Shown here: piece after piece, positions 163-38,578 of the stretch
Position numbering within the stretch: position 1 is the first letter of the stretch
Layout: every line of letters starts with the position of its first letter
NCBI GenBank assembly: GCA_016209895.1
Contig: JACQVH010000053.1
Coordinates: forward strand, 1 to 62,367
Direction of reading: 5' to 3'
Origin: Candidatus Hydrogenedentota bacterium
GTDB taxonomy: Bacteria; Hydrogenedentota; Hydrogenedentia; Hydrogenedentales; SLHB01
Length of the DNA stretch: 62,367 nucleotides
The notes under the pieces: generated by a model
Told to the model about the DNA's origin: nothing
The model's database searches: none
What the model saw: only the letters and a program-made list of their open reading frames with translations
Program-made: the position numbers and the translations under genes

Positions 163-684
163 TTACAGGAAGTTGCGCGCGTCAACGATGTATCCGTTGG
201 TGGCATCGTCCGTATCCTTGATCGAGGTCATGCCTGGCCGCAGGTAGAGCTGGCCCAGGGCGACACAGTTGCTATCCGGATCGGGAGCGGTTGGACTGGC
301 GGCCTCGGTCCCGGTTTTGACCGCTACGTCCCAGGCGTCCAGCCGAGCCTGCACCAAGTCTATGCGCGGATTAGTTGTGGGCGGAGTCACGGCGGTAGTC
401 GCCGTGGCCGCGCCCAACTTGTACGGGAACTGCGAAATGAACGCGTATCCGGGCTTGACCTGAACGGTCAGTCCGGGCGGAGAAGTCGCGGTGACCTTCA
501 GATCGTCGCTGGTGGCATGGCGCACCACGCCATCGCCGCCGCCCCAAGCGAGGCTCAGCAGAAAGTGGATCAGTTCGAGCGCCGCCTCGATCCGGTCGTC
601 CCACGTATTCAGTTTAGACGAGGCGACCGGGCGTTCCGCGTAGTTCCAAGTAGTTTTTGTGTAAGCCTTGCCTAAGATTGCCAT
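163..684 (-). CDS. Phage tail-tip/fibre-base-like protein (173 aa)
   Basis: ATG at 684 with a GGAGG SD. N-terminus YTKTTW..P..SSKLN.WDD.IE and motifs GLTVQVKPGYAF, PRIDLV, G..A..P.AP, LGQLYL resemble siphovirus fibre/baseplate attachment domains. Last gene after Dit and hub. Confidence 0.6.
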   Translation of the reverse strand: MAILGKAYTKTTWNYAERPVASSKLNTWDDRIEAALELIHFLLSLAWGGGDGVVRHATSDDLKVTATSPPGLTVQVKPGYAFISQFPYKLGAATATTAVTPPTTNPRIDLVQARLDAWDVAVKTGTEAASPTAPDPDSNCVALGQLYLRPGMTSIKDTDDATNGYIVDARNFL

Positions 685-724
685 GTTGTCCTCCAAGATG
701 CGGCGATGTTCGCAAAATTTGTGA

Positions 725-2464
725 TCAATCGAGATGGAACTGCAGGTCCAGTCCGACGACCGTGTCATCGAGTCGGAATTGGAAGAAGGTTTCGGGGTCG
801 GGTTGGCTGCGCGTCATGGAATCAATAGGATTCTGCACCGAGCGCAACGGCGACGTGAGTTGTACAGTCGTAACCGCGTGTTTGCCTTCAAACCGGTGCG
901 TAACTTCGCGAACCCGACCCACCAACCTTCCGCGAAAACGGTCATCCCACTCCCCGTCTACTTCCGGCTCGAGCCGGCGTAGCGGGCCGCCGCGCAGTTC
1001 AACGATATCCCCCACCTGCACGGCGCCGTGTCCACGAAAACATACGACGGCGCCGCTCGGTTCCGGGTAGGCCAAGTCCTTCAAAAGTCCTTCAATAAGT
1101 TGGTCGGCATCCAGTTCCGACGAAATCGAGTAAAGCACGAGGTCTCGCGCCCGCTCGCCGTACGTTGCAAGACTCTCTGCAGACTGATACGTCTTCTTGA
1201 CCGCGGCTTCGAGCGGATTCCCTTCGAAATAGATAGTATTGGCGACTTGGGTGGAATCAGAACCGAGCGTCACGCCCATCGCGACCGGGTTGAAGAACCA
1301 GACGTGGTCCGGTTGTTCGGCGCGCCGAAAGCTGACGGCAAGACGCGGGTCCACCGACCAGATGAATCCGTCCGCGGCATAGGCGAGCGCGGTGAGAATT
1401 TCGTACAGACCCGCCGACACATCCAATGCGTTCATTACCACGTCGGTGGCTTCGATCGAATCGTCTTGGGCGCTCGAATAGGAGAGGTAATCCTTCAATT
1501 CCATCTCCGGGACGAGGTAGCGCCCGTCCTCATAAAGGTAAACGTCCGCGTGGCCCAACTCGACCATCGCAGCGTTCAGGCATTTGTCGTCGCCATAGAC
1601 CAGGCCGACGTAGCGCCCGTAGGCGTCCACCCGATTATCGAACTCGCCCACAGAATCCCGGTGTGGGTTCAGTTCGATAAAGTCGATCCCTTCGGAATCC
1701 AGCAACCCTTGAAGCGCGGCCTTTGCTTCGTCGGCGCGCAGCTTATATCCGCTACGCGAGTATTGCGCTTCGGTCCAAGACTCGATCTCCGGGTGGCGAG
1801 TGATAGCATGGGAATTTCGGGAGGTCTCTTCGCAATCAATCATCATTAGACGGAAGTCGGGCCAAGGTTGTCCGTCAATCACCAGGCCTCCAATCGTATC
1901 ACCGTCAATGGCGTAGGCGGCGGAAGCGTCAATCCGCGTTCCCCCCACCCATTGCCCGGCGGAAATACCGCCCACTTCGAGTTCGTTCTCGGCAGTCTTT
2001 CGGGTGAGAAACTTCTGATACTCGCGGGTTGCTCCGTCCGGATACGCCTCGTGTGCGACTCGATAATGCGCCGGACCCAAGGCGGAATTAGTAGCGTGTT
2101 TGACGATCGCGCTGATTTCGGCGTCGCGATAGGCTTGCACTACGGACCTGCTGCCGTCGCGGGGTGGGCGCCCGGCTTCGAACGTCACCACTTCATGAAA
2201 ATGGACGTAGCGGTCGAGGATAAGTTTCCGGGCATCGCTCCATTGCGGGGCCAAACGAGTCACTTTCGCCTCGCAAAACAACGCGCCATTGACCAGCACG
2301 CGAACTCGGTAGGCGGGACCGAGACTGGCAATGGTTCCCGGCAGTATCCCGCGAATCGAGTCGGCCTGGTCGGGTGTGGCGCGTGTAACCTCCAGAAGCG
2401 GCGTCTCGTCAAAATGAGCAATGCGCCGGCCCCAAGTGTCGTACACCTCGATGCGATAATTCAT
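725..2464 (-). CDS. Phage tail hub / Tal-like baseplate protein (about 579 aa)
   Basis: Follows Dit (ATG 2464, 2 nt after the Dit stop; alternative start 2473). C-terminal pattern N.IY..G...S...YG.....I.....A......L...GD.V....V.EV.H is typical of phage hub proteins. Confidence 0.7.
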   Translation of the reverse strand: MNYRIEVYDTWGRRIAHFDETPLLEVTRATPDQADSIRGILPGTIASLGPAYRVRVLVNGALFCEAKVTRLAPQWSDARKLILDRYVHFHEVVTFEAGRPPRDGSRSVVQAYRDAEISAIVKHATNSALGPAHYRVAHEAYPDGATREYQKFLTRKTAENELEVGGISAGQWVGGTRIDASAAYAIDGDTIGGLVIDGQPWPDFRLMMIDCEETSRNSHAITRHPEIESWTEAQYSRSGYKLRADEAKAALQGLLDSEGIDFIELNPHRDSVGEFDNRVDAYGRYVGLVYGDDKCLNAAMVELGHADVYLYEDGRYLVPEMELKDYLSYSSAQDDSIEATDVVMNALDVSAGLYEILTALAYAADGFIWSVDPRLAVSFRRAEQPDHVWFFNPVAMGVTLGSDSTQVANTIYFEGNPLEAAVKKTYQSAESLATYGERARDLVLYSISSELDADQLIEGLLKDLAYPEPSGAVVCFRGHGAVQVGDIVELRGGPLRRLEPEVDGEWDDRFRGRLVGRVREVTHRFEGKHAVTTVQLTSPLRSVQNPIDSMTRSQPDPETFFQFRLDDTVVGLDLQFHLD

Positions 2465-2466
2465 GC

Positions 2467-3153
2467 TCACCACCAGCGGTCGTGAAAGGCTACCGTGACG
2501 CTCGCCGTGTGCGAACTCGCCGCGTCATCCGTGTAGATGAGCGTTGTGCCATCCGGCGCGATTTCGGGAAAGCTCCCCCGGGAATACGGCGTCACGTCGT
2601 CGCCGTCGAGTCGGACTTCCCCCAATGCGCCGTCGAAGACCAAGGTCGCGCCATCGGCCACGATGCCCGAATAACCGATGAGATGGACCCCGTCGCTGAA
2701 ACTGGGATTGACGATTTCCCCGGCGGCCACCAGCGTGATTACGGGACCGGTTGTCGCATTCCCGCCGGACGAGAAGGCGCGAGTTGCGCCCGAGGCCGTG
2801 ATACTCCACACGACGCTTGTAGCTTGTGCGGATTCCTCGAAGGGGTCCTTCGCCAGCAGGCGCAGTTCGAACGAACCCACCAAGGCGGCAGCGGAGACCT
2901 CGCGCGTGAACGCGTCGCGGCGCACCCAAAGACGTCGCCCGGCCCGCAGGGAAAGTTCGGCGGAAAAGTCTTCCTTCGAGGCGGCGTCGAGAATGGCATC
3001 CAGTTCCGCCTCGATGGCCGCCACCGTCGTTTTGCCGAGAACGAGTCCTTCGATTTCGATTCGACGCGCGTCCCGGCCCCCGACCTCCTCGTGTTTTTCG
3101 CGGACCGTGGTATTGGCGTCGTCAAACGTATAGTCGCTGAGCGTGATGGGCAC
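2467..3153 (-). CDS. Distal tail protein (Dit / siphovirus tail family)
   Basis: LLAKDPF motif, GPVITL, LVFDG...V.LDG, GSFPEIAPDGTTLIY match the Dit-type tail family; position fits. Confidence 0.75.
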   Translation of the reverse strand: MPITLSDYTFDDANTTVREKHEEVGGRDARRIEIEGLVLGKTTVAAIEAELDAILDAASKEDFSAELSLRAGRRLWVRRDAFTREVSAAALVGSFELRLLAKDPFEESAQATSVVWSITASGATRAFSSGGNATTGPVITLVAAGEIVNPSFSDGVHLIGYSGIVADGATLVFDGALGEVRLDGDDVTPYSRGSFPEIAPDGTTLIYTDDAASSHTASVTVAFHDRWW

Positions 3154-3155
3154 GG

Positions 3156-3566
3156 TTAGTCTTCTCCGAGTATGGGCTGGCTATCGGTGGCGGAGGCGAT
3201 CGTGTGCGGCGGCACTTCAAGCAGGTAGGGTTCGAGCAGGTACCAGGCCTGCTTTTCGACCAGCGCTGCCACGCTCATCAGCGCGGCAAACCGGCTGCCC
3301 TCTTCGAGACGCTGACTTCCGATGGAGACGCGTTTCTGCTCGGCGGCGTCTTTCCCCGCGATTGACCGGAAGAGGTGCGCTGTCGCCAAGAGCGTCTCCC
3401 CGACCACAATCGCATCTTCCGGCGGGTCCGCGTTGTAGAGCGGGTCCAGGAAACGGAGCAACTCGGTATGAGCGTCCGTAATGCTGGCGTTCACCAGGAC
3501 CGAAGGGACAAGGGTCGTATCGTTCAACTGAAACTTGTCGCGGACGTTTTGTTCCGTCGTAAACAT
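3156..3566 (-). CDS. Head-tail connector/adaptor protein (136 aa)
   Basis: Small, predicted alpha-helical ORF directly downstream of the MCP, with GGAG SD; ends with LLEPY, typical of adaptors. Confidence 0.6.
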   Translation of the reverse strand: MFTTEQNVRDKFQLNDTTLVPSVLVNASITDAHTELLRFLDPLYNADPPEDAIVVGETLLATAHLFRSIAGKDAAEQKRVSIGSQRLEEGSRFAALMSVAALVEKQAWYLLEPYLLEVPPHTIASATDSQPILGED

Positions 3567-3728
3567 CTCGTATCTCCAATTTCCCGGTCATCCGCTCTGG
3601 GCGGGCTCGGGTCTCGAGGATGGGTATGGAACCCAAACCCGAGACCCGAGCGGGGGAGGGGGAAGGATCTTAGCTTCGGTTCTCAGATCGGGAGCATTTC
3701 TCTGAAAACCCAAGCCGGGTCGAAAGAA

Positions 3729-4778
3729 TCAGGTCCAATCGCTTTGAACCACGAGACGCGCCTTCTCGTAGATGATGGCGAAGTCCGTCACCACCGTCAG
3801 ATAGGTGCGGTCCCACTGTTGGTTGATGAGTTTGTCGCTCTCGACCAGCAAGTCCTGCTCGGTGAGCTTCTGCGCCGCATAGCCCGCGTCAAGGATCGTG
3901 AGCTTGTTGGCGGGCTGGTCCACCATCGGGGTCAGGCGCACGCCAAGCGGTGTCGGCAGGTTTCCGGTCTTCGCGAAATCGAACAACGCCGCTTCCTTGA
4001 ACTCATCGAGGTTCAGGATAGTTTGACAGAGGTCCGAATTCGCGAGCAGGTGCGTGGGCGTGAAATAGTGTTCCAGCGTGAGCTTCATGAAGCCTTTGAC
4101 GATGTCGCTGTAGGTCCACGTCCCGGCCGTCGCGGTATTCACCGTGACCGGGGCCGTGCCGCTGCCCGACGAGTCGCCGGAGACCAGGATCAAGGCCAAC
4201 CGCGCGTCGAGGCTGCGGCCCAGGCGCTCGCCGATGCGCTGTAAATGCACGCGCAACATGTCCACCGACATCCGGCGGATCACTTCGTACGACGCGAGCA
4301 CGCCCCGGCCTTTTTTGTCCAACCGGACAATCCGGTCGCCGTAGGTGATCGCCGATTCGGGGATTGCCGCGCCCTCGGCCACACCGCGCAATTCTTCTTC
4401 GTCCGCCGACTCCTGGACGTAGGGAACGTCGTACGCCGTGCCGTCAATGGATTCGTCGCGGATGATCAGTTCCGGATACACCGGTTTCCGTTTCAGCCCG
4501 GCCAACACGGCTTCGCGAACGATGTCCGGGAACAGCCACTTGGTGTTCGGGTCGGTCTGGAAGAAACGGTCCACGGTGATCTTATGGACATCAATGCCGA
4601 ACTCCTGCGCGCAGTAGTCCTCGACGTTGGTCCCGAGGGCGCGGAAAAACTGGAAGTGGCTCAAGCCGAGCGTTTCCAGTGAATCATACAGGACCCGCCC
4701 GCGAATCTGTTGGAGCCGGTCCGCGGTTTGACTCAGGAACGCGATGCGTTCCTTCACTTTCTCGTTGTAGTACGCCAT
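3729..4778 (-). CDS. Major capsid protein, HK97 fold (349 aa)
   Basis: LFPDIVREAV..G, VAEGAAIPESAITYG....RLDKKGRGVLASYEVIRRMSVDML..HLQRIG..LG..LD pattern (E-loop and spine helix); follows the protease and cement genes. Confidence 0.9.
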   Translation of the reverse strand: MAYYNEKVKERIAFLSQTADRLQQIRGRVLYDSLETLGLSHFQFFRALGTNVEDYCAQEFGIDVHKITVDRFFQTDPNTKWLFPDIVREAVLAGLKRKPVYPELIIRDESIDGTAYDVPYVQESADEEELRGVAEGAAIPESAITYGDRIVRLDKKGRGVLASYEVIRRMSVDMLRVHLQRIGERLGRSLDARLALILVSGDSSGSGTAPVTVNTATAGTWTYSDIVKGFMKLTLEHYFTPTHLLANSDLCQTILNLDEFKEAALFDFAKTGNLPTPLGVRLTPMVDQPANKLTILDAGYAAQKLTEQDLLVESDKLINQQWDRTYLTVVTDFAIIYEKARLVVQSDWT

Positions 4779-4791
4779 ACCTTTTCCCTTC

Positions 4792-5172
4792 TTACAGCAG
4801 CACGTGCACTTGGCTGGCTGCGGTATCCACTTTCACGTTGATGCCCCGGCCATTACCCGAAGCCGGCGCTTTGACTTTGCCGTTGGTGGCCGAGGCGACG
4901 ATGCCCTGCGTGCCGTTCACGGCCGGCGCGCTGTCCGTGTACCCGAAGATGCACACGCCGCGAACTTTCACGGGGATTGCCGCGCCATTCTGGTCCGAAT
5001 TCGCCAAGGCCTGGCCGAACACCACGTCCTCGGCGTCGGTGTCGTTGTTCACGATGTACGCGCCGCTCAGCTTGAGCGCGTCGCCGCGCGCAACGTTAAC
5101 CGTCCCGGACGCCGGCAACTGACAAGTGATCACCAGTTCGGTGACGGTGCCTCCGATATCTCCAAAAGCCAT
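4792..5172 (-). CDS. Capsid cement/decoration protein (DUF2190-like, 126 aa)
   Basis: Gly/Ala/Val-rich beta protein (GDALKL, VFGQAL, IPVKVRGV) immediately upstream of the MCP; AAGGAG SD. Confidence 0.7.
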   Translation of the reverse strand: MAFGDIGGTVTELVITCQLPASGTVNVARGDALKLSGAYIVNNDTDAEDVVFGQALANSDQNGAAIPVKVRGVCIFGYTDSAPAVNGTQGIVASATNGKVKAPASGNGRGINVKVDTAASQVHVLL

Positions 5173-5190
5173 GATGGTTTCTCCTTAGTT

Positions 5191-5324
5191 AGTGGTCAGT
5201 GACCAGTGGCCAGTGACCAGGTACTCGTTGCTCATTGCTCATTGCTCATTGCTCATTGCTCGTTGCTCATTGCTCGTTGCTCATTGCTTATTGCTCATTG
5301 CTCATTGCTCGTTGCTCATTGCTT
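5191..5324. repeat. Heptamer tandem array: 4x AGTGRYC, 1x GGTACTC, 14x RTTGCTY
   Basis: Read directly: agtggtc agtgacc agtggcc agtgacc a ggtactc, then (a/g)ttgct(c/t) x14 from 5227 to 5324. Confidence 0.95.
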
Positions 5325-6024
5325 ATTTCTCGCGCAGGATGGCGAAGGCGTCAGCGGCGCGCCCATCGTGGGCCGTGTCCGGCAGAGGTTCGGGACGCGA
5401 TTGCGGACTGGGCGGATACTTGCCGTCGAAGCGCACTTCGAATGCCCGCAATTGGACATGGATTTCCTCGAGGCTCAGCGAATTCAGCGCCTTGCGCCAG
5501 GTCGCCTCGTCAAACGTCATGCCATCCAGTTCCCGGCCCAGACCACAGAGCCGTTCGATCGAGCGCCGGCGCGCGGTCACACCGTCGGCGATGAGACGCG
5601 CCGCGTCTTCGGCCGACGCCTTGAGTTCCTTAAGCGTGTCTCGAATCTCCCGAATACGCTGAATCGGGAGACCCTCGACGCGTTCAACACACAAGCGGCG
5701 CGCGCCGGCGCGGCCCCGAAGCAACACGACGAATCGAGTGGGCGACTTCTCGAGCCAGGTGTAAACACCGGAGTCTTCGCGCACCGCGTCGCCATCCTGG
5801 TCCAGCCAGTGCAAGCCATGCGGAGCCTTCTCCGTAGCCCACGGCCCGTTCTCGAGAGACGATGCGTCCACACGCCATCCCTGCAGATAACCGGCCCGTT
5901 CGAGACGAATGTCCAGGTGCGGCCCGGCCGCGTCGTGATGACGCTGAATTACAAAGCGGCCGTCCGGCTGTCCTTCGGCCACAGATTCGCTCGCGTCAGT
6001 TTCCGATGTGATCTTCCAAAACAT
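5323..6024 (-). CDS. LigD 3'-phosphoesterase-like domain fused to a helical/coiled-coil C-terminus (233 aa), in the scaffold-gene position
   Basis: GRFVIQRHHDAAGPHLDIRLE..GYLQGWRV...ATEKAPH...DSGVY aligns by eye with the PE-domain pattern RFVVQ.H.A..LH.D.RLE.DGVL.SWAV...EDH...WD.G.Y. Confidence 0.65.
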   Translation of the reverse strand: MFWKITSETDASESVAEGQPDGRFVIQRHHDAAGPHLDIRLERAGYLQGWRVDASSLENGPWATEKAPHGLHWLDQDGDAVREDSGVYTWLEKSPTRFVVLLRGRAGARRLCVERVEGLPIQRIREIRDTLKELKASAEDAARLIADGVTARRRSIERLCGLGRELDGMTFDEATWRKALNSLSLEEIHVQLRAFEVRFDGKYPPSPQSRPEPLPDTAHDGRAADAFAILREK

Positions 6025-6035
6025 GTCGTTTTCCT

Positions 6036-6230
6036 TTACGTCTTAAGCAACTGCTGCGCCAGACTCATCACTACCCCCGCCAAATTGGCGACGAGCAGGA
6101 CCACACCCCGCGCCAGCGTAGACTCGAGACTCCGAACGCGCTGCTTCAACTCCTCGATGTCGCCGCTCAAATGCCGAAACTGAATCTCATGAACCAATTC
6201 ATATGGACAATTGCTACGCAAGCGTCTCAT
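6036..6230 (-). CDS. Small coiled-coil plus single-TM protein (64 aa), holin/XhlA-like
   Basis: ATG 6230 with a GGGGA SD; heptad segment IEELKQRVRSLE followed by hydrophobic GVVLLVANLAGVVMSL. Confidence 0.55.
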   Translation of the reverse strand: MRRLRSNCPYELVHEIQFRHLSGDIEELKQRVRSLESTLARGVVLLVANLAGVVMSLAQQLLKT

Positions 6231-6285
6231 GCCATCAATCCCCAATCAGCTTTTCCCAAACTCGTCACTCATTGCTCATTGCTTC

Positions 6286-6975
6286 TTACTCTTCCGCCCA
6301 CCACCGTTTCGACCACACTTCAACCGGCCGGTGATACTCGCTTCGGGCCAGGACCAGCGCCCGGTCCAGCGACAGCGTGCGTTCCTGGGCGATGAAATGC
6401 GTGCCCTGAGAGCCCGCCGGTACGACGGAGCCTTCAATCACTTCCAGGACTCCCCGCATGATGCAGTGACAGGTCGCGTCCGCGTAGGTACGTCCGGGCA
6501 CGTGGTCGCACGTGCGCAGGTCGCGGCTGCAGATGGAACATTCCGGCGTTTGGAACGAGAACCCGATCGAGGTCTCGCGATAGACGCCGCCCTCGATATT
6601 CAAGATGAAATCTTCATTCTCGCGGGTTCGAAGGACGTATACATCCGGTCGCGCGGACACGCGCTCGCCTTCTCGGTGCAATTGACAGCGAAAGAATGTC
6701 CCGCGCGGCAACGACCCGCGCAGATCGTGGCGCTCCATCAATGGCCGACCCGGGACCATCCGGTTGATCTTCTCCAATTCCTCTTCAGGAAATCGGCTGA
6801 AGTGCCGGTCCATTTGGTTGTGGCAAAGGTCAAGGGTAAACACTTCGAACTCTTCGCGCCGCAACGGTCGAAGCGCGAATACGTTGACTTCCTCGACCAC
6901 GGGGTCCGCGTCGTCCCGCGCGCGCATGCCGATCAGCACTCCCTCGTGCCGAAATATGAATGGGTCCAAGTTCAT
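6286..6975 (-). CDS. Prohead (head maturation) protease with Zn-finger insert (229 aa)
   Basis: ATG 6975 with a GAGGAG SD. LCHNQMDRHFSRF, MERH (His), GGVYRETSIGF (Ser), CSIC...C.H.PG..Y....C, IEGSVV (Glu). Confidence 0.85.
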   Translation of the reverse strand: MNLDPFIFRHEGVLIGMRARDDADPVVEEVNVFALRPLRREEFEVFTLDLCHNQMDRHFSRFPEEELEKINRMVPGRPLMERHDLRGSLPRGTFFRCQLHREGERVSARPDVYVLRTRENEDFILNIEGGVYRETSIGFSFQTPECSICSRDLRTCDHVPGRTYADATCHCIMRGVLEVIEGSVVPAGSQGTHFIAQERTLSLDRALVLARSEYHRPVEVWSKRWWAEE

Positions 6976-7056
6976 CTGATTCTTCTCCTCAATTCCTGAA
7001 ATCCGATGATTACCGCTCCGCGTTTCATCCTTCACACTTCATCATTCAGACTTGTC

Positions 7057-8304
7057 TCACCGGCCGATCTCGATTCCCAAGGTCTTCGCCGCCGCCCGCT
7101 GGTCCAGAAACCCTTCGTTGCGCAATTGCACCGCGTTGGCGATCTCCCGGCCCCGGGCCGTGGCTTCCTTCAGCACGTCCACCGTCCGGTTCGCGCGCAT
7201 GTGGACGCGCGCGCGCGCGCTGCCCCACATCAGCGCCAACTCAAAGTTGTACAGGCGTTCGAGGATGCGTTTGACGCTGCGGTTCACGGCTTCCACCTGA
7301 CGGTTGATAATCTCGAACTGCGCCGTGCCATAGGTTTCGGTCGTGCCATAGTTGCGGCCGAGAAGGATCGGCATGAGGTGCATACCCGTGATGATTTGCT
7401 CTTCGATGGCCTTGTGGTTCTCGTAAAATACCTGGGAACGTTGGTCCCCACGGATAAGCTCCACGCTCACGTTATCGTAGGTAACCAAGTTTTGATCCGC
7501 TTCCCGCTTGGTCAATTGGTCCCGGAGTTGCGCGAAATCGCGGTCCTTCCGCTGTGCGTACGCCTCCGCCGATTCACCGCGTTCCTTCGGTTCCGGCGTA
7601 TACTTCGCGTGCAGTTTGGCCCACCCCGCGTTATGCGTCGCTTTGGCCATATCTTCGAGCAGGCGCTGCTGAATCCTCACCACAAACGGGACCGAGCGCA
7701 GCATCGAGCGCCCGTACGGATTGGTGCCGTCCCGATCCAATCCCACGTAGATGAACCGCTCTTTCGGAAGTCGTAGCTCCTTGCCTTCGTGCACCTGGTA
7801 CGGCTGGAGGCCGCCGCCCTCGCGCTTGAATCGCACTGTCCACACGTCCACCGGGACCACGTCGAATATGGACTCCCGGCTCTGCGACAGCACGACCTCG
7901 AGGGCGGCGGCCCCGTAGGTGAAGAGGGAGGTGTAGAAGAGGTCCAGAAGTCCGTCCATGCCGCGGTCGCCGCTGTTCACGCGCGTGTCCAGTTCGCGCA
8001 ACAGCCGCAACGCGCGGTCCCGGGCAATCTCTGAAGAAGGCTCAAGAATCTCGATGTCGTAGCCCGTCTGACATAGACGTTTCCAGGTCCATACTGCATC
8101 CGAAATATCCGGGATGGCATCCCGCAAGAAGCGATAGACTCGAAGCATAAAGAATGGCGTCTCATTCGGGAGGCGCACGAACGCGTCCAAAGAACCTCCA
8201 AGCATGGGGGAATCCTCGGGGCGCGTCACGGTTTGAAACGTCTCCACTCGAACTCCCCGCACTCGGTTTTCCCGCCGTTTACGTTTTCGCCACCACGTCA
8301 TCAT
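7057..8304 (-). CDS. Phage portal protein (about 415 aa)
   Basis: FIYVGLDRDGTNPYGRSMLRS portal-type motif, LFTYGAAALE, I..G..L.P.LLG; first gene of the head module. Confidence 0.85.
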   Translation of the reverse strand: MMTWWRKRKRRENRVRGVRVETFQTVTRPEDSPMLGGSLDAFVRLPNETPFFMLRVYRFLRDAIPDISDAVWTWKRLCQTGYDIEILEPSSEIARDRALRLLRELDTRVNSGDRGMDGLLDLFYTSLFTYGAAALEVVLSQSRESIFDVVPVDVWTVRFKREGGGLQPYQVHEGKELRLPKERFIYVGLDRDGTNPYGRSMLRSVPFVVRIQQRLLEDMAKATHNAGWAKLHAKYTPEPKERGESAEAYAQRKDRDFAQLRDQLTKREADQNLVTYDNVSVELIRGDQRSQVFYENHKAIEEQIITGMHLMPILLGRNYGTTETYGTAQFEIINRQVEAVNRSVKRILERLYNFELALMWGSARARVHMRANRTVDVLKEATARGREIANAVQLRNEGFLDQRAAAKTLGIEIGR

Positions 8305-8446
8305 TCGTCGGCTCTCCCAAGTATCTCTCCATATATATAGCCCCGGCCGTTGCACTCCCCAGTCAAGGCGAGAACGAACGCAACTCTAGGCAGATTCAGG
8401 AGATGGATGCAGTTCGAAGGCCCAAAATGACCCCCTAAATAAATTC

Positions 8447-14950: not shown

Positions 14951-15096
14951 TCCGCATTTCTTGGAGCCTCCAATCCCTGGGACTTGTGGTCGCGGCCACC
15001 ATCTCCAAAGCCTAGCCCCTTCGTCATGTTGACCGCACTCGGGGAGGGGACTAGAATCTTTCCTTGGGTCGGCGCTGGGGTGCGGAGGATGTCGCG

Positions 15097-16770
15097 ATGA
15101 AACGGTATAGTTTTGGTACCTTCCTGGTGGATGAATCCAATCGCGAGGCGCTTCAACTCTGCCAGGATATCGCCAATCTTCAACCGGTATCGCCCATGCC
15201 CCTGGTGCTCGTGGGCGACGAAGGTTGCGGCAAGACCCATCTCCTCTACTCGATTGTCAACCGCGTGCGGGCGGCTTCGGGAAGAACCGGACTCGCCTAT
15301 GTAACCGCGCACGATTTTCCGGACCAAGTCCGCGCCCTCATTGACGATCCTTCTCCGGTCGAACGCGCGCCGAACGCCATTCTGCTCGTGGACCAGTTGG
15401 ACCAATTCGTGAATCTCGTCGCCGAACTCGAAGCGGTGGTTCGAATCTTCTTGGAAAACAATCAGTACGTGGTCCTGGCCACCAAGACCCACCCGGGCCG
15501 GCTGACCCGATTAACGCCGCGGTTGCGAAACCTGCTCGCCTCCGGGCGCAATGTGACCATCTTTTCCCAAGATGCGCAGTGCCAACTCGAACTCGCCAAG
15601 CGGGAAGCGCGGCTTGAAGCCGAGGAACGACTCGCCCAACAACAGGAAGAGATCGTGCGGTTGCGAGAAGCGCTAGACCTGAGGCTGAAGGCGGTAGGCC
15701 GCAGGCCGGAGGAAGCGACCATGGCGCGGGTCGAGTCACTCGAGCCGGCGATGCCGCCCCAGGACGAACCCGACATATCGAGCGTGGACTCGATGCGTCG
15801 GGAACTCGAGGCGGAACGGGCGGCGAAGATTCAATCGCAGACGGAGATCGAATGCCTTGAACGCGAATGTGCCGAGCTACGCGGGCAGTTGGAGGCGGCC
15901 CACGCCGAGCGTGACCGCGCCCGTGACCAAGCCGACCGGATGCTCGAACGCGCCGAAAAATTGGTCGCTCTCATCGAGGCCGGCAAGCAACGGTTTGCCG
16001 AGTCGGACCAGCAACAGCGTCGTCACATCCAGGAACTGGAGGCGCTATTTGCGCAGGGCGGCGCGGCCGCCATTTCGGCCGTGGACCTGAATGCGGCGGA
16101 ACGAACGAAACCGGCGGCCGTGGCGGAATGCGAGGAAATCCGTCGCGAAGCCGCGGCCCAAGTCGCCCGCGCCCAGGCCCGGGCCGGGGAGCTCGAAGAA
16201 CGGTTGACTCGGTTGCGCGCGGTATTGAACTTGTCGCGAAGTACCGGAACGCAGGTGGCGGCTCAGCTCGGCGGATTGCATGAACAATTCGCCGCCGCCG
16301 CCGAGACGCTTGCCGAATTGGCGGGCGAGTTGACTTCCGTCGCCCAGGCCGCGGAAGCCGGGCGGCTCGATCCCGAACGCGCCGAGACGTGGGGCCGAGT
16401 CGAGGGGCTTGCCGAATTACTGGGACCGACCACGGACGGTCTTGCCATCGCGACCGTTGGCGCACCCGAACCGGCGCGCGAGGCGACGCGCTTCGAGGCG
16501 CCGTCCGGGAATAGCGGAAACGTGGCGGCGCTTTCCGTTACGGAGCCGGCTGAATTGCCGAGAGACGAGAACCTTGCCGCAGGCCCACAATCAATGCGCA
16601 ATCTGATTGAATCCGAATTGGAGGTGGACGCGATCCGCGCGTCCCCTGACAACGACCGGCTGGTCCTCGATGACCTACACCTATTCGACGCGTTTTCCGT
16701 CCCGGCCGCGCCGGTTCAGCCGTTGCCTAAGCTGAGCTCGTTGCAAGAGGATTCGGACCCATCCATCTAA
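15097..16770 (+). CDS. DnaA/Hda-type AAA+ domain fused to a long coiled coil and acidic tail (557 aa)
   Basis: YSFGTFLVDESNREA, PLVLVGDEGCGKTHLL (Walker A), ILLVDQLDQF (variant Walker B); Glu/Arg/Ala heptads from about aa 170 to 440; no DnaA domain IV. Confidence 0.75.
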   Translation: MKRYSFGTFLVDESNREALQLCQDIANLQPVSPMPLVLVGDEGCGKTHLLYSIVNRVRAASGRTGLAYVTAHDFPDQVRALIDDPSPVERAPNAILLVDQLDQFVNLVAELEAVVRIFLENNQYVVLATKTHPGRLTRLTPRLRNLLASGRNVTIFSQDAQCQLELAKREARLEAEERLAQQQEEIVRLREALDLRLKAVGRRPEEATMARVESLEPAMPPQDEPDISSVDSMRRELEAERAAKIQSQTEIECLERECAELRGQLEAAHAERDRARDQADRMLERAEKLVALIEAGKQRFAESDQQQRRHIQELEALFAQGGAAAISAVDLNAAERTKPAAVAECEEIRREAAAQVARAQARAGELEERLTRLRAVLNLSRSTGTQVAAQLGGLHEQFAAAAETLAELAGELTSVAQAAEAGRLDPERAETWGRVEGLAELLGPTTDGLAIATVGAPEPAREATRFEAPSGNSGNVAALSVTEPAELPRDENLAAGPQSMRNLIESELEVDAIRASPDNDRLVLDDLHLFDAFSVPAAPVQPLPKLSSLQEDSDPSI

Positions 16771-25930: not shown

Positions 25931-26268
25931 GGGAGATTCCTGCGAAACAAAAAGAGATATCGTCGCCAAATCCGACGGAATTCGCCTAACACGAAGTTCA
26001 GCGAGATTTCCAGGATTGCGGCACGAAGGTGTAGCAACCGGTTGGCGCTGCGGACCGATAGTGGGAACCCCATCTTCCAATCCTTCAGCTATCTCCGGCA
26101 CGACTTCGCACCAGCCGGCGTGCCAGTCGCCGATTGCTCATCTGAACCCGTTTCCCCGCATTTTGACTGCCCATAATCTGTGGCATATATTGCGTTCATC
26201 GGCGACCAATAGAGACCGTTGTGTCGTGCTTTATTCTTCAGGGACGCCGATTAAAGAGGAGGATACAC

Positions 26269-26550
26269 ATGGCGTCCAAGACCGTGAGCTTTACCCACAC
26301 GGGTGTATCCAAGCTCCCCAAAGACAAGCCGGTTATTTGCAAGATTCAAACCGATTCCGGCAAGACAATCTACGTTGGTACGGCAAAGCGCGGACGCGTC
26401 CAAGATCGGATTCTCGAACATCTCACCAACGCCGACGTTGCTGGATCAAAAGTGCAAATCGAGCAGATGCCCTCCATCGAAGACGCTCGCAAGACGGAAC
26501 AAAGGATCATTGCCCGGGTACAACCCAAGTATAATGAACAGGGGAAATGA
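26269..26550 (+). CDS. Stand-alone small GIY-YIG nuclease-family protein (93 aa)
   Basis: ATG 26269 with a GAGGAGG SD; PVICKI..IYVGTA..R..R..EH..E..II....PKYN; the first Tyr of GIY is replaced by Cys. Confidence 0.75.
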   Translation: MASKTVSFTHTGVSKLPKDKPVICKIQTDSGKTIYVGTAKRGRVQDRILEHLTNADVAGSKVQIEQMPSIEDARKTEQRIIARVQPKYNEQGK

Positions 26551-26661
26551 TACCGCTGGTTCCGGTTCAACGGGAATCGTCACTTGCTACACTAAGCACC
26601 AATTCTGCGTATACGATGAACCCGCAAAGATAGCCGCGTTGGTCAGCACATGTTCTCGTAA

Positions 26662-26991
26662 ATGAGTGGGGCGATTATGGCGCCGGATGGGGAAAAAGCA
26701 GACGCAACTACCACACTCTCGGGCCCGCAAAAGGGTGATTTCATAGCGCCGCCGCCGGTCTCGGACACGGACGAGCGTGTGGACGCCGTGCATTACGTGG
26801 GCGACATCGTCGCCGACTTCTTCTGCGGCGGTGGCACGACTGCGGCGGTCGCGCAGCGGTCGGGTCGGCGTTGGATTGCATTTGATCAGTCGCGGGTGGC
26901 CGCGGCCATCACCATGGCGCGAATCGCCTGCAAAGTGCAGGATGACATGGGCGGCGAAGGACTTTGGGCCGGAGAGGTGGACGTAAAGTGA
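26662..26991 (+). pseudogene. C-terminal remnant of an N6/N4 DNA methyltransferase (Mod-like)
   Basis: DIVADFFCGGGTTAAVAQRSGRRWIAFD (SAM-binding motif I) with no catalytic DPPY region upstream. Confidence 0.8.
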
Positions 26992-28187
26992 GTGCTGTTG
27001 CGAGGTTTGAGTGGGTGAATCCAAGCTGTCTCAAGGAAGCCCGAGAACGACTTCGCCTAGCTCGCGAGGACGTCGTCGATCAAGCAAAGCATCTCGGCGA
27101 CGAATACGAGGGGATCACGCCAAGGGCCTTGGAATTGTGGGAGGCAGGTACCAAGGAGCCGGAACTCCGCCACTTGGAGGCGCTTTCGCAGATTTACGTC
27201 TGCCCGGTGGGTTGGTTCTTTCTTCCGAGTGTTCCAGCCGAGCCTTTTGCGCTCGATTTCCGTGGCGTAGCTCCAGGGGCGAAGGTTGGCGGGCGCGGTA
27301 TGCAGACACTTTCAAGATTCCTCGAACTCGCGGACTGGGCCGAGGAGCTGGCGATCCAAACCAGCCAATTCATCGCCACCCGCATCGGACAGACCAGCCT
27401 ACAAGATGAAATGTCCGAACTGGTGGCGGCTGAACGACGAAGACTTGGTTTTGATGCACGTATTCGCTCAACGTGGCATAGCAGCGATGACGCATTCGAT
27501 TGGTGGCGGCATCAAATCGAAGATTTGGGCATTTTCTGCTTTGTAATGCGCTTGCCTACCAGTGAGGTGCGCGGCGCTTCGTACTGGGGTAAGCGTGGAG
27601 CGGCGTTTATCCTGGTCAACAGTGAGGATGCCGAGGCCGCCACTGGACGAACCTTTACACTGCTGCACGAGTACGCGCACCTCATGCTCCACGAGAATCT
27701 CGTATGCGACTTCAGAGGTTCGAAAAACGGTGCCAAAATAGAACGGTTTGCCAACGGATTTGCCGCCGCGATGCTATTGGACCGTTCCGAATTGAGTGCA
27801 AGCCTTAAAGAGCTTGACGCTACCCAGTTTCGAAGCCAATGGGGGGACGCCATGCTGGACCGGATTCGTGAGCCATTCCGAGTCAGCCGTGATGTCGTCG
27901 CCATTTATCTGGAAGAACTCGGACTGGCCCCCAAAGGACTATACAACGAGAGGCGCGGCGTATGGTCAAAACGCAAGGCATTTGGAAGATCTGCCGCTGG
28001 CCGCGTTGGCCGTAATCTGACGGCGCAACGGTTGAGGATGGTCGGAAACACGCTTGCCAAAGTTCTTTCTTCAAAGCAGGCCGAAGCTACCTTGTCCGCT
28101 CTTGACCTTGCAGAAGTCTTGGATGTCAAGGTCGAAAGAGTTCCCGCCGTTCTGCAAGCCTTTAGACACGCTGGAGGCCATGGGTGA
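26988..28187 (+). CDS. XRE-HTH plus ImmA/IrrE metallopeptidase (399 aa)
   Basis: GTG 26988; N-terminal HTH (LKEARE..WEAG..EP..L..L); FTLLHEYAH (HExxH), E.FAN.FAAA.LL. Confidence 0.9.
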   Translation: MSAVARFEWVNPSCLKEARERLRLAREDVVDQAKHLGDEYEGITPRALELWEAGTKEPELRHLEALSQIYVCPVGWFFLPSVPAEPFALDFRGVAPGAKVGGRGMQTLSRFLELADWAEELAIQTSQFIATRIGQTSLQDEMSELVAAERRRLGFDARIRSTWHSSDDAFDWWRHQIEDLGIFCFVMRLPTSEVRGASYWGKRGAAFILVNSEDAEAATGRTFTLLHEYAHLMLHENLVCDFRGSKNGAKIERFANGFAAAMLLDRSELSASLKELDATQFRSQWGDAMLDRIREPFRVSRDVVAIYLEELGLAPKGLYNERRGVWSKRKAFGRSAAGRVGRNLTAQRLRMVGNTLAKVLSSKQAEATLSALDLAEVLDVKVERVPAVLQAFRHAGGHG

Positions 28188-28615
28188 CGGTTGATCACTC
28201 GAACCCGATCTATTGTCTCGACGCGGATGCATTGATCAACATTCAGATGTACTATCCGGAGGCGCTCAAACAACTCAATCGTTATGCCAAAGATGGCAAG
28301 GTCGTAATACCGGAGGGTGTCTACCGGGAGATTTGCCGAAAGAGCGATCGACTAAACACCATGGTGCAGGCTTGGCATGAAAAACATAGCGCGGTCATTC
28401 GGCTTGACACGCCAACGCTTCGTGTGGAATTGGCCCGTATGGAGGGGTCTTACGGCGAGAAAATCAACTTGGGCAAACAGCGGAGGAAGGGTTTTTGGTC
28501 GAGCAGAAGCGGTAAACTTTCAGCGGATTCCCAAGTCGTGGCGGTGTGCAAGATAAACAAGTACATTGCCGTAAGCAACGTCTCAAAGGCCAAGCGTTGC
28601 TCTTCGAGTAGCTGA
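28184..28615 (+). CDS. DUF4411-family PIN-like protein, possibly C-terminally truncated
   Basis: YCLDADALI..YP, IPEGVYREI, SADSQVVA; overlaps the ImmA stop; the C-terminus drifts into a non-conserved tail after IAVSN. Confidence 0.7.
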   Translation: MTVDHSNPIYCLDADALINIQMYYPEALKQLNRYAKDGKVVIPEGVYREICRKSDRLNTMVQAWHEKHSAVIRLDTPTLRVELARMEGSYGEKINLGKQRRKGFWSSRSGKLSADSQVVAVCKINKYIAVSNVSKAKRCSSSS

Positions 28616-28719
28616 CTTATGTTTAATCAATTTGCTCGATATGGAGTGTATCCTGGCCACGGTGTAACAAAAGTCCGTCACCGGGCAAATCTCACTGGGT
28701 TCTCTGCTCACGCGGTCGG

Positions 28720-29140
28720 TCAAACGCCTTGCGCGGGGGGGGTCTCGGGTAGCCACAGGGGTCGAAAAGATTTTCCGCGCTTTAGCTTGGTGACGAGGGC
28801 GATTTGGCCGACGTGTTCGGAGAAGTGGCGTTCGGTTTCGTAGATGGCCGTTAGGCGGGTCACGGGGAAGTCCTGTATCACGAGGGGGTCGGTTAGTTTC
28901 GCAGGGTCCATCGCTTCGATTGTCGACAGGGCCGTCTGAACCGTTTCGTTTATGAGTGAAAGAAGTTCCGCCTTGGTCAGGGCCGGTCGGTCGTCAAACT
29001 CGCGGTGTCGGTCGCGGGCATTGGCGTGTCCTCGGGCGACGGAGGTCATCCATTGGCCGATGTTGCCGCAGAGATGGATGATAAGGTTGCCGATGCTGTT
29101 GCAGCCTTCGGCGGGATGCCACCAGTATACCGGAGCGGGG
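28720..29140 (-). pseudogene. 5'-truncated DinB/DUF1572-family gene
   Basis: WWHP.EGCNSIGNLIIHLCGN..QW, RDRHREF, HFSEHVGQI; no start or N-terminal helix, and the upstream sequence is repeats. Confidence 0.75.
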
Positions 29141-29164
29141 ATTCGTTTTGAACTACTGCGTGTG

Positions 29165-30255
29165 TGACGACGAATCACACGAATCGGACGAATCGGGAAC
29201 GCTGGAACGCCGAAAAACAGCGCGTAGTTTTTTGTAGCGCCGCGGTTTTGGAGTGCGGGCGCTTGCTCCCGCTTTACCTGAGCGAGCTTGCTCGCGACCG
29301 GAGTCATTTGGCTATGGGTACGGGGAGCAAGTTCCCCTTGGAAAAGCGGCAGCAAGCTCCCGCAGTCCAAAGAGTGTGCGTCGGATGATTTGGTGTAAAC
29401 CAAGGTGTAAACCGAAACCGGGTAAACCGGGGACCTTACCCTGAATTTCATGCTCATTACTCGGCGGAGCGCACGCTGTCCGACACCCGAACACCGCCCT
29501 CTTACCCCGGTCAATCCGTTCATCCACGCTGAAGCCTGTCCCGCAACCCAAAGAACACAAAGGACCGCTGCTTCGCGGTAACTCACTCTGCACTTGTCCG
29601 CCTTTGGAGGATTCCGCTCTTGTCCGCCTCTGGAGGATTCCCACAGTCCTCTCTACAGTTTCTGACGAAATTGCAGAGAATCTTTTGCCCTTTTCAAGCG
29701 GCCGCCTGTACTGCAATCTATCGAGTTCTTGTTTTTTTGCGAAGATTTCTTGCGCAAGGTACAGCAAACAAACGTGTTATGACTGGCATTTCTTGGTGCC
29801 CTTCGTGCCTTGGTGGTTCATGCTTTATCCGAATCGCGGCCTTGGCCGCGCGAGGTTCGTTAGTGTCATTCGTGTGATTCGTGGTTACACAAATTTGGTT
29901 GCGGCCTTTGACCGCGCTGGGTAATTTTCGTCCTTTTGGCCTTTATAGCACGCCGAGTGCAACGCCCGGGGCTATATATATAGGGAGACTTTTCATCGTG
30001 GACCGTCAAAAAGCATTCCCGAGACCAGCCGACACTCGGACACGGGGCCATCTGCCTCGGTGTCCGTCCGCTCCGATCCGCGTCGCCCTGTCTCCGTCCA
30101 TGTCCGTCCGTGTCCGTCCACGTTCCATTCTTGGGAGAGAATCCTACAAAAATGTATCACGCTTTTGTACCGATTTTGACCGCTTTTGTACAACTTTGTA
30201 CCGATTTTCACGAAAAATGTCCGGTTTTATACCGCTTTTGTACCGCTTTTTCGCC
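29165..30255. repeat. Repeat-dense non-coding stretch: 9-mer arrays, an inverted REP-like pair, 24-mer copies and a 10-11-mer array
   Basis: acgaatcac acgaatcgg acgaatcgg; TGGAGTGCGGGCGCTTGCTCCCGCTTT ... AAAGCGGCAGCAAGCTCCCGCAGTCCAA (about 29249-29371); two cttgtccgcctYtggaggattcc; (cgcttttgtac)-like units at 30171-30250. Confidence 0.75.
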
Positions 30256-30402
30256 GCAATTCCCCGCCCGCGCGCGGCTTTCCCCCTTACGCCCCAAGTA
30301 CTTACGCGCACCGACGCCCTTTCCGGCCTCCGTCAAGACCCCAAAAATGAGAGATGCGGAATGTCATTTCTTTCCCCCGTGAACACCGGGAAGAAACCGC
30401 GA

Positions 30403-33333: not shown

Positions 33334-33348
33334 GCAGAATTCTCCCTA

Positions 33349-33389
33349 GAAAGAAAAGGGATCACGACTCATGCCTTCATCGTGATCCC
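33349..33389 (-). terminator. Rho-independent terminator after the lipoprotein gene, just upstream of the GH20-like start
   Basis: 10-bp stem GGGATCACGA/TCGTGATCCC (33358-33389) followed on the minus strand by TTTTCTTTC. Confidence 0.65.
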
Positions 33390-33428
33390 GCATTGTCTCT
33401 TGAGGCAAGGCTAGCTTGCCCGAAAATC

Positions 33429-33878
33429 CTAGCGCTCGCTGGCTTCCATTCCGCTGATGAGCCAAGCTTCGCCCTCTTTCTTCAACGTCATATAGAGCGA
33501 CGCCGCGCCAAACGCGGCGTCAATGTCCACGGGCGCAACCGTCGCCTGCCCGCCGTCAATCACAGTCTTCGCGTTGGCCATATTGATCTTCGCGTCGTTC
33601 AACTGCCCTTCATTAATGAGGCCGGTTAAGAATCGCTGCATGTCGGCCTTGGTACCCGCTTCGGAGCCGACGAAGCTCTCCGAGATGGTCCCCATCACCT
33701 GGTTCACGTCCTTGGCGACGACGCCCGCTTCCCATTGCGAGAGCGTGTTCTTGATCAGCGCCATGTCGTCGGGGCCTTTGGCCTTCTTAGCGCTCTTGCC
33801 GCCGGTGCTGGCGCAGCCCACGGCCACCACCGCCACGAGAATTCCGATACCGAGTTTCGAGAAAAATGACGTACGCAC
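33429..33878 (-). CDS. Lipoprotein with an NTF2-like/SnoaL fold (149 aa)
   Basis: GTG 33878 with an AAAGGG SD; lipobox VAVG|C; ends LKKEGEAWLISG. Confidence 0.75.
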   Translation of the reverse strand: MRTSFFSKLGIGILVAVVAVGCASTGGKSAKKAKGPDDMALIKNTLSQWEAGVVAKDVNQVMGTISESFVGSEAGTKADMQRFLTGLINEGQLNDAKINMANAKTVIDGGQATVAPVDIDAAFGAASLYMTLKKEGEAWLISGMEASER

Positions 33879-34069
33879 AGTTCTACCCTTTCCTAATTGT
33901 CTTACCACTTCATGCCCAAGAAAGACGCCTCCGCGAGACGAAACGCCCCTAGCATAAACACACCAGGCGGAACGGGTCAAGTGGGGTGTACTCGCTCCAC
34001 TGGAGAGACCAACAGTTGAAAAGCGTCAAGCCGGTTAGGACGGTGGCCAAACGAAGTTTGAGGATCTTA

Positions 34070-35215: not shown

Positions 35216-36075
35216 TACGTGATTCTCTGTTTGGCCCAGGCTTCGTTAAGCTCCCCGGGCAAGCGAAATCTTTCGACTGGCCAAGGCCGGGTCATACGTT
35301 CCAGACAAGGGAGTCCACGGGCGGTGAACTTCGCGAGTATTTCCGCGTTCTGCTTTCCATATGTGGCAACGCGGTGGACCGTCTGGCCGTGAGTTTCTTC
35401 GGCACGAGAATACGGGTGTACACCAAACATTACCTCGCACAGAACAACGCCGAGGGCAAACTGGTCAGTTCGCCAATCAATAAGATGTTTCTTATTCGTC
35501 AGCTGTTCCGGAGCCGCATAGAGTGGCGTCCCAGGACCACGCGATTGCCAAGTTGTAGTAAGTGAAGAAGCTCCGAGGTCGCGAACTAGGCCGAAGTCAA
35601 CCAAAACAGGTGTTTCCCCATCTTGACGAAGCATTATGTTGTCGGGCTTTATGTCTCGATGCACAAGGCGGAGACTCGCTACGTGCAAGACGGCGGAAAT
35701 TAGGTGCGTACCTAGTGCCAGAATCTCGTTTCCACTCAGGCACCCACGCTCTGTAAGCCGAGATGTTAGTGATCCACCCGGAAGGTATTCTTCGACCGTT
35801 TAGTCGTATCGAACACCGTCGAGCTCATGCGTGCTGGCATCGAAAAGCCGGCCAATGTTCGGGTGATTACACCTTTGCAGTGCTTGGATTTCGCGATTTG
35901 TGCGGGGCTCGGACGCCGGCCCTTTGATGACCTTTAGCGCACGAAACTGACCCCCGCCCATTTGCACCTTGAACACGTTCTTGAAAGCGCCTCCACCAAC
36001 GTACTCAATGAACTGTAACTGTCCCGCCGCACAGATCGACTTCGCGGCTTTTTCCAGGTCGGTGTCTACCGGCAA
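35215..36075 (-). pseudogene. Hanks-type Ser/Thr protein kinase interrupted by one in-frame TAA (35800-35802)
   Basis: GGGAFKNVF, ALKVI, REIQAL..CNHPNI, then RYD*TVEEYLPGGSL in the same frame, HRDIKPDN, DFG, GT.LY.APEQ, DQFALG. Confidence 0.88.
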
Positions 36076-38575: not shown

Positions 38576-38578
38576 GGA

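Follow-up and report, generated by a model that had tools for sequence, protein, structure and literature searches.

A host-conserved, phage-derived head and tail-tip operon of Hydrogenedentota without terminase or tail-tube genes, probably a domesticated particle system

Domesticated phage particles known so far are of a few types: gene transfer agents (GTAs), whose heads, tails and terminases are complete; tailocins and injection systems, which are headless; and encapsulins, which have no portal. Known GTAs are inherited vertically, and besides a core head-tail cluster they have accessory and lysis genes at separate loci (PMC11841831). The subject of this study is a ten-gene cluster (g01 to g10) at one end of a 62,367-bp contig of a Candidatus Hydrogenedentota bacterium (JACQVH010000053.1); the entire contig was taken as the window, and positions are those of the window unless a locus is named. 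The cluster encodes a portal, a major capsid protein (MCP), a distal tail protein (Dit) and a baseplate hub, and it fits none of the GTA, tailocin/injection-system or encapsulin types. Hydrogenedentota are often met in sediments, sludge and digesters; the whole phylum is uncultured. The cluster was read, with a probability of roughly 0.85, as a domesticated particle-forming operon. It is a vertically inherited domesticated system and not a prophage remnant, and has lost the terminase, most connectors, the tube, the chaperones and the tape measure protein (TMP).

Ten intact, co-oriented and tightly packed open reading frames (ORFs) run on the minus strand from 8304 to 163 in the ORF list of the window, each with a GGAG-like Shine-Dalgarno motif ahead of it. 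An initial annotation, made from the letters alone, had described ten co-oriented ORFs of this kind, and both coordinates and strand were confirmed. The distances it gave were exact: the stop codon of g07 (3156-3158) lies 2 nt from the GTG start of Dit (3153), and 235 bp separate the portal start (8304) from a divergent PagL-family gene at 8540. Its list of ten genes was incomplete: all ten exist, but after a 131-nt spacer behind g10 an ATG at 31 opens a further conserved frame (g12, beginning MSIENVLTSE) that runs off the contig. The operon therefore has at least eleven genes here, and its own end lies outside the window.

Conservation was assessed in a locus scan of one genome per species, which gave 74 loci, nearly all from Hydrogenedentota metagenome-assembled genomes (MAGs) and two from closed chromosomes. 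Gene order was colinear in 41/41 loci holding ten genes, and 39 of the 43 sufficiently long loci, from different species, had the complete cluster in this order; protein lengths hardly varied, and the median span from portal start to g10 stop was 8.5 kb. The order was kept while the family diverged to approximately 40-50% identity. At 55-64% identity there were over 300 clusters of hub homologues; almost all measured exactly 579 aa, and every informative name among them was Candidatus Hydrogenedentes. Values of dN/dS were taken from unsaturated close pairs only, distant pairs being discarded because dS was saturated, and the medians were 0.04-0.19 across all ten genes. Two sub-clades retained the same host neighbours, and within them cluster identity correlated with the identity of adjacent host proteins (Pearson 0.63-0.997, Spearman 0.56-0.94). 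Divergence of the cluster thus tracks its host flanks, which is the pattern of vertical co-inheritance. The proposal in the initial annotation of a domesticated particle system kept by the host is supported by this co-divergence and by the two checks that it had suggested, synteny and selection; the shared chromosomal neighbours it expected were found within the sub-clades, where identity correlates with the flanks, but not across the whole phylum.

Many cluster-bearing MAGs carry Nitrospirales or Nitrospiraceae labels, and single ones are labelled Bathyarchaeia, Rhodothermaeota or Planctomycetota (discordant labels: L005, L009, L010, L018-L020, L022, L027, L031, L008, L077). The locus L020, labelled Nitrospirales, shares 81% identity in the cluster and 78% in the host flanks with L023, from a Hydrogenedentales MAG. 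The comparison indicates mislabelling or misbinning in these cases, not a wider distribution. One locus (L063, 7446-8537) has an insertion sequence (DDE_Tnp_1 transposase, 1.7e-16) between MCP and g07, with no gene disrupted.

No terminase, tail tube, chaperone, tape measure or integrase gene was found in the cluster or in the other 54 kb of the window, which hold transporters, NorB, glycosidases, a type III restriction-modification pair and other genes. All of these genes were likewise absent within 10 kb of the cluster in the 74 related loci, and large terminase (TerL), tube and tape-measure queries from the nearest phages returned nothing by tblastn in 1.17 Mb of loci plus the window. It had been claimed that the adaptor-Dit junction leaves no room for stopper, tail terminator, tube, chaperones or TMP and that no terminase stands at its usual place, and this was borne out here and in the relatives. 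A complete module just left of the window had been named as the observation that would make the cluster an ordinary prophage; the orthologous loci hold only g11 and/or g12 there, followed by host genes, with no tail, terminase or integrase. On a 787-kb contig the cluster is bounded by NrdD and DinB, on a 562-kb contig by a sulfatase and TPR protein and a melibiase, all unrelated host genes, and host genes also stand on both sides in orthologous loci, whose contigs reach 7.9 Mb. None of the ten proteins had a defence-system match in PADLOC, and a defence-island reading of the cluster was dropped for this reason.

In IMG/VR the MCP matched two short fragments of the same cluster and then sequences of ≤29% identity; among 1.84 billion representatives at 50% identity there was one full-length MCP representative with fragments (≥62%) and then nothing above 35%, and identity to phage collection entries was ≤33%. 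The MCP is one isolated family. Its nearest capsid relatives are complete siphophages, an IMG/VR contig (L088) and a Logan contig (L126), in which portal, a g02-like gene and MCP are homologous at 24-35% identity and stand in the same order. These phages differ in having TerL ahead of the portal, four to five connector genes after the MCP, a major tail/tube protein, chaperones and a tape measure of 1247-1721 aa, and homologues of g04, g05 and g07-g10 were not detected in them. The initial annotation assumed an ancestral layout in which TerL precedes the portal and the connectors, tube, chaperones and TMP follow the MCP; these siphophages show it, and it is therefore right. Together with the conservation in the host, this relationship makes the cluster an ancient and reduced offshoot of a siphophage module that the host lineage has retained.

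Table 1. Features of the cluster and its surroundings, with the basis of each assignment (aa, amino acids; TM, transmembrane; AF2, AlphaFold2)
Feature	Description	Position	Strand	Match or basis
g01	portal protein, 415 aa	7057..8304	-	PF06074, phrog_3753
g02	candidate prohead protease, 229 aa from ATG (249 aa from GTG at 7035)	6286..6975	-	phrog_16951
g03	small tail-anchored membrane protein, 64-69 aa	6036..6245	-	Cys pair, coiled coil, C-terminal TM helix
g04	LigD-type 3'-phosphoesterase with helical C-terminal half, 233 aa, at scaffolding-protein position	5323..6024	-	3p43, TIGR02777
g05	small virion protein, 126 aa, at head-decoration gene position	4792..5172	-	phrog_4588
g06	HK97-fold MCP, 349 aa	3729..4778	-	PF25209, phrog_3922
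g07	candidate head-to-tail adaptor, 136 aa, four helices and extended C-terminal tail	3156..3566	-	position only
g08	Dit, 228 aa	2467..3153	-	phrog_33, PF22768, 2x8k
g09	baseplate hub with inserted staphylococcal-nuclease domain, 579 aa	725..2464	-	AF2/Foldseek, PF00565
g10	fibre/receptor-binding-like protein, 173 aa	163..684	-	phrog_9534, phrog_20556
g12	5' end, cut by contig end	1..31	-	MSIENVLTSE, N-terminus of conserved family
Upstream motif	GTGCAAC-N8-CTATATATAT, candidate promoter/operator	8331..8355	-	51 nt ahead of portal start
gX	copies in other loci	L009 4236-5888, L036 848-2716, L008 5156-6376, L033 4619-6280, L024 6300-7232, others

The head genes were assigned by profile matches. 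The portal matched PF06074 Portal_Mu (1.5e-9) and phrog_3753 (4.7e-51), with a median close-pair dN/dS of 0.077, second-lowest after the MCP among genes with several close pairs. The MCP matched PF25209 (1.7e-13) and phrog_3922 (5.1e-51); its column identity averaged 79% over 31 species and its dN/dS was 0.05. For g02 the match was phrog_16951 (1.8e-30), a PHROG with no assigned function, and there was none in Pfam, NCBIfam or PDB. The related siphophages have, between portal and MCP, a gene whose N-terminal half is homologous to g02. In g02 itself His58, His83, Ser136 (TSIGF) and a Cys3-His zinc ribbon (C146/C149/C156/H158) are invariant in 39/39 sequences; it is a candidate prohead protease. 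In L003/L007 (about 4830-5580) g02 has only 119 aa (48% coverage), a frameshift or assembly error. The sole match of g05, which has 126-128 aa in most loci and 123-124 in a few divergent ones, was phrog_4588 'virion structural protein' (1.5e-9), with no PDB sequence match. Among the gene labels of the initial annotation, portal, MCP, Dit, hub and the phosphoesterase (PE) domain were upheld by profile or fold matches and g05 as a virion protein, whereas 'protease', 'cement' (for g05) and 'adaptor' are positional labels.

At the tail tip, g07 is the single gene between MCP and Dit in all loci and by this position a candidate head-to-tail adaptor; its AF2 model (predicted local distance difference test, pLDDT, 82) has the helices and tail listed in Table 1. 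Dit matched phrog_33 (9.4e-13) and PF22768 SPP1_Dit (3.3e-4), and a profile of 31 orthologues matched SPP1 gp19.1 (2x8k) at 6.8e-6. The hub had no sequence match to hub families, and its relative in the phage collection was limited to S. aureus thermonuclease. The top Foldseek matches of its AF2 model (pLDDT 67) were of the gp27/Mu gp44/VgrG type (3d37, E 1e-10; 3cdd; 1wru; T5 pb3; 80alpha), VgrG and the spikes of extracellular contractile injection systems (eCIS) being among them. Residues ~180-320 (window 1505-1927) form a staphylococcal nuclease (SNase) insertion, with PF00565 at 2.7e-5 (25 bits against a cut-off of 21) and a profile match to PDB SNase at 5e-7. Hub residues D189, R205, D210, E213 and R284 align to D21, R35, D40, E43 and R87 of SNase, where D21 and D40 are the Ca2+ ligands and E43 is the base. 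This catalytic set is intact in 61/67 hub orthologues, the window included. With homology to the fold and the residue set both present, the insertion is assigned to the staphylococcal (thermo)nuclease family. The database gene call P0002 for the window hub (725-2464) has 373 aa, or 64% of the open and conserved 579-aa frame, and is an annotation start-site error. For g10, phrog_9534 (5.6e-10) and phrog_20556 'baseplate protein' (4.3e-8) matched over residues 78-187; the resemblance to phage baseplate/virion proteins lies in the N-terminal region, and the protein has 173 aa in nearly all loci.

The g04 profile matched the LigD-PE structures 3p43 (1.9e-7) and 3p4h (1.9e-5) in PDB, and TIGR02777 LigD_PE_dom at 2.7e-5, below the curated cut-off of that family. 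The PE domain is N-terminal (residues ~20-110, window ~5695-5967), and H29, H36, D38, R40 and H69, presumably the LigD metal-binding/catalytic set of His, His, Asp, Arg and His, are invariant in 47/47 sequences. By homology together with this residue set the N-terminal half is assigned to the LigD 3'-phosphoesterase superfamily; the C-terminal 95 residues are conserved and helical and could be assigned to no family. Across loci g03 conserves the coiled coil LKxRVxxLExTLxRGVxLLVANLxGV. It had no Pfam match and one weak match, to holin phrog_689 (E 0.024). An XhlA-like identity was considered for it and had no support from hidden Markov models.

All flanking ORFs were clustered, and the only recurrent additions were g12, g11 and gX; the remaining recurrent families were host genes, polysaccharide synthesis among them. 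Searches of Pfam, NCBIfam, PHROGs and PDB sequences with these three, and likewise with g07, gave nothing significant or PHROGs without function. In 45 loci g12 stands 3' of g10, with ~122 aa, an N-terminal TM helix and a charged helical domain, and it is a candidate holin-like lysis or membrane protein. The g11 gene (29 loci, ~160 aa) had weak endolysin PHROG matches (E 0.02-0.03), and its motif SxHxxGGxAxD ... HxH, read by eye, makes it a candidate LAS/M15-type peptidase. About one third of the loci have gX between g02 and g03, with 267-622 aa, a signal-peptide-like N-terminus, a conserved PRYLEELRIGGGYGD motif and variable C-termini, some of which match CBM_4_9 (2e-4) or Phage_depo_C (0.004); its product may bind receptors or act as a depolymerase. 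The window has neither gX nor g11.

Upstream of the portal, GTGCAA[CT] occurs 51-99 nt 5' of the start in 16/43 loci and within 200 nt in 17/43, the expected count being 0.024 per 200 nt. In the window and related loci it is followed, after ~8-12 nt, by a TATA-rich box, and the element is a candidate dedicated promoter or regulator site. Intergenic spacers of the window also hold heptanucleotide tandem arrays (5197-5331, 6268-6283, 46-73, 41628-41662, 49476-49503, 50838-50869), the longest being GCAATGA x15.4 (minus strand) in the g04-g05 spacer; spacers of L071, L042, L025 and L051 hold comparable arrays of other units. These arrays were considered as a regulatory feature of the operon and dropped, because arrays of this type are also present in the rest of the window and in other loci. 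They look like a genome-wide feature, not a cluster-specific one, and recall cyanobacterial STRR repeats.

Outside the cluster, GC content is lower (0.53-0.57) at 26000-41500. Genes for an IrrE/M78 peptidase (26964-28187), a DNA methylase (36723-38297) and a ResIII helicase (38579-41350) lie in this stretch, and tRNA-Ser(CGA) comes after them at 41392-41482; the stretch is probably a defence or type III restriction-modification island. A 568-aa ORF at 15064-16770 has the DnaA ATPase domain only (PF00308, 2.5e-16, residues 13-162), with no recognisable DnaA N- or C-terminal domains, and may be a DnaA-like ATPase of other function.

A particle of the following kind is proposed for the domesticated operon. 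The capsid would consist of MCP, portal, the candidate protease g02 and g05, assembled around g04, whose C-terminal half could be a scaffold or targeting segment that brings the phosphoesterase inside the procapsid; g02 would process the procapsid. A dodecameric g07 ring on the portal would dock directly on hexameric Dit, closed by the trimeric hub, a 12-6-3 symmetry sequence also used by podovirus tails. We infer in this way a head physically joined to Dit and hub. The short fibre g10 would complete the tip, and the hub would display the Ca2+-type staphylococcal nuclease. Lysis and particle release would fall to g03 and g12, with the LAS-type candidate g11 in many relatives. A terminase encoded at another locus would drive host DNA through the portal, and the particle would carry this DNA to neighbouring cells; the tip nuclease might remove extracellular DNA or act on DNA at the cell surface, and 3'-phosphate ends might be repaired by the encapsidated phosphoesterase. 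This GTA-like version, with host DNA as cargo and the terminase at another locus, is held tentatively, at somewhat less than an even chance. 3'-phosphates are what SNase-type cleavage leaves behind and what LigD PE domains take off, so the two enzymes could share one pathway. Since the SNase site is lost in some lineages and the PE site never, we read the nuclease as an accessory tip enzyme, like the depolymerases on other tail tips, and the phosphoesterase as core.

Several points weigh against the domesticated-particle reading or parts of it. No terminase was found in the cluster, in ±10 kb of the 74 loci or in the 62-kb window, and to our knowledge every characterised portal-bearing capsid needs one for DNA packaging. 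We know of no solved precedent for a direct adaptor-Dit junction, and the g07 model had no significant match in a fold search of PDB and BFVD (best BFVD E 0.04; a 'head-to-tail adaptor' entry at E 0.34, neither significant). No significant family assignment was obtained for g02, g03, g11 and g12, and the protease and lysis roles are therefore inferred. The chromosomal position differs between distant lineages and is kept only within sub-clades. The cluster is split or half-lost in L013 and L024, where the portal-to-g04 half is absent from the 7 kb 5' of g05 (in L024 a gX-like gene stands directly ahead of g05), and g10 is absent in L034 (closed chromosome OY782877.1, 11682-12618), where g11 and g12 follow the hub directly. 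The SNase set is broken in L060, L061, L063, L065 and L069, with R or A for D21 and with S for E43 in three and a gap there in L061, and L002 has H for R87. The remainder of these hubs is conserved. Nuclease activity is therefore not essential everywhere (5-6/67 hubs), and it appears dispensable in part of the phylum.

The absence of a terminase from cluster, 74 flanks and window speaks for a particle that needs none, and such a terminase-independent, non-DNA particle was the rival given most weight, though it was considered unlikely. A portal-bearing capsid, loaded with the g04 phosphoesterase by means of the scaffold-like C-terminal half much as encapsulins take up their cargo, would have an enzyme-delivery or killing role, its Dit-hub-fibre stub docking to cells or matrix and the hub nuclease acting as a matrix-DNA depolymerase or bacteriocin-like warhead. 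The fusion of an enzyme domain at the scaffold position, with catalytic residues all invariant, suits this reading, as does the VgrG/gp27 fold of the hub, which carries effectors in the spikes of type VI secretion systems and eCIS. SNase-type enzymes need Ca2+, which would keep the nuclease harmless inside the producer. However, the portal is strongly constrained (dN/dS 0.077), and portals are known for letting DNA pass; a spike would have neither sheath nor tube nor tape measure to push it through an envelope, and no immunity gene is apparent. Loss of the SNase site in 5-6/67 hubs while the hub is kept fits poorly with a nuclease payload. Slightly less probable again is a particular form of it, a terminase-independent, tube-less particle in which a portal-bearing capsid encloses a DNA-end-repair enzyme and is plugged by the nuclease-displaying Dit-hub stub; nuclease (3'-phosphate ends) and 3'-phosphoesterase would then make up a particle-tied DNA-processing pathway.

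Two further rivals treat the cluster as a mobile element or its remains, and both were judged very improbable. A satellite resembling capsid-forming phage-inducible chromosomal islands (PICIs), making its own heads and tip while a helper phage supplies the terminase and missing parts, would account for capsid genes without terminase or full tail and for the two cluster fragments filed as viral contigs in IMG/VR. It is hard to reconcile with divergence that tracks the host flanks, with the lack of integrase, replication or excision genes within 10 kb of any locus and of any tRNA-att context seen, and with one locus recovered per assembly, a figure from the locus scan and not a direct copy-number count. 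No close phage relative is at hand as helper, and capsid-forming PICIs lack Dit and hub, both of which the cluster has. A rearranged prophage with its terminase, tail and lysogeny modules elsewhere, or a functionless decaying remnant, was placed marginally lower still and is largely refuted. The window does end 31 nt into the next gene, and the cluster is split in L013 and L024; against this stand the host genes on both sides of orthologous loci, the intact genes of fixed length in 39/43 loci and dN/dS of 0.04-0.19. A remnant would not outlast divergence to ~40-50% identity with its order kept.

If the domesticated particle transfers DNA, it would be a phylum-level GTA family beyond the few known lineages, and a siphophage tail would be reducible to its tip. 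If it transfers none, a portal-bearing capsid would have found a new use; a terminase-independent particle would stand apart from GTAs, tailocins, eCIS and encapsulins as a form of phage domestication, and there is a real chance of such a separate kind, should no terminase exist. The biochemistry of tip nuclease and encapsidated 3'-phosphoesterase is testable by heterologous expression.

In the searchable full-text literature, no description of this Hydrogenedentota cluster, of a thermonuclease hub or of a terminase-less domesticated capsid was found. Among described systems, siphovirus prophages have a terminase, tube, TMP and integrase that are neither in nor near the cluster, whose intact genes are phylum-wide, and the capsid-forming PICIs are set apart by the presence of Dit and hub here and by flanks without recurrent integrase or replication genes. 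Encapsulins share the HK97-fold shell and perhaps, as g04 may suggest, an enzyme enclosed through a fused targeting or scaffold segment; they are without portal, protease, Dit, hub and fibre, whereas the cluster has portal, Dit, hub and fibre and is not one of them. Evolved VgrG and eCIS spikes resemble the hub in bearing an enzymatic (nuclease) domain on a gp27/VgrG fold, but here the nuclease is internal instead of C-terminal, the hub is linked to capsid genes, and there are no sheath, tube or baseplate wedge genes; with MCP and portal present and no tube, sheath or TMP, the cluster is neither a tailocin nor an eCIS. Podovirus tails (P22 gp4-gp10-gp26; T7 gp11-gp12), compared from general knowledge, likewise have a 12-fold adaptor, a 6-fold ring and a 3-fold tip, a likeness to the predicted architecture only. 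They differ in that the parts here are a siphophage-type Dit and a gp27-type hub in place of nozzle and needle, with no ejection or internal core proteins recognised.

The RcGTA type of Alphaproteobacteria likewise encodes Dit and hub distally in its cluster. From GTAs in general the cluster differs in having no small or large terminase subunit (TerS/TerL), stopper, terminator, tube, chaperones or tape measure, in the nuclease inserted in its hub, in the 3'-phosphoesterase at the scaffold position and in its phylum. It is not of the RcGTA type. Of the functions in the RcGTA head-tail cluster (terminase, portal, protease, MCP, adaptor, head closure, terminator, tube, chaperones, TMP, Dit, hub, peptidase, megatron) seven are missing here, and the distinction is drawn from gene content and family matches, not from a direct comparison with RcGTA sequences; none of its Pfam or NCBIfam matches was to a GTA-specific family, its MCP has no more than 35% identity to anything outside its own family, and the similarity to phage heads is distant and generic. 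In GTAs generally, a terminase (TerL, usually with TerS) drives headful packaging of essentially random host DNA, which the particles pass on to recipient cells. Measured against the general definition of a GTA, the cluster, known here from its genes, agrees in its evolution. Like RcGTA-type agents, BaGTA, VSH-1, Dd1 and VTA, it consists of phage-derived structural genes that are fixed in the host, inherited vertically and held under purifying selection, and like them it is without replication or lysogeny genes, in systems whose accessory genes may sit elsewhere (PMC11841831).

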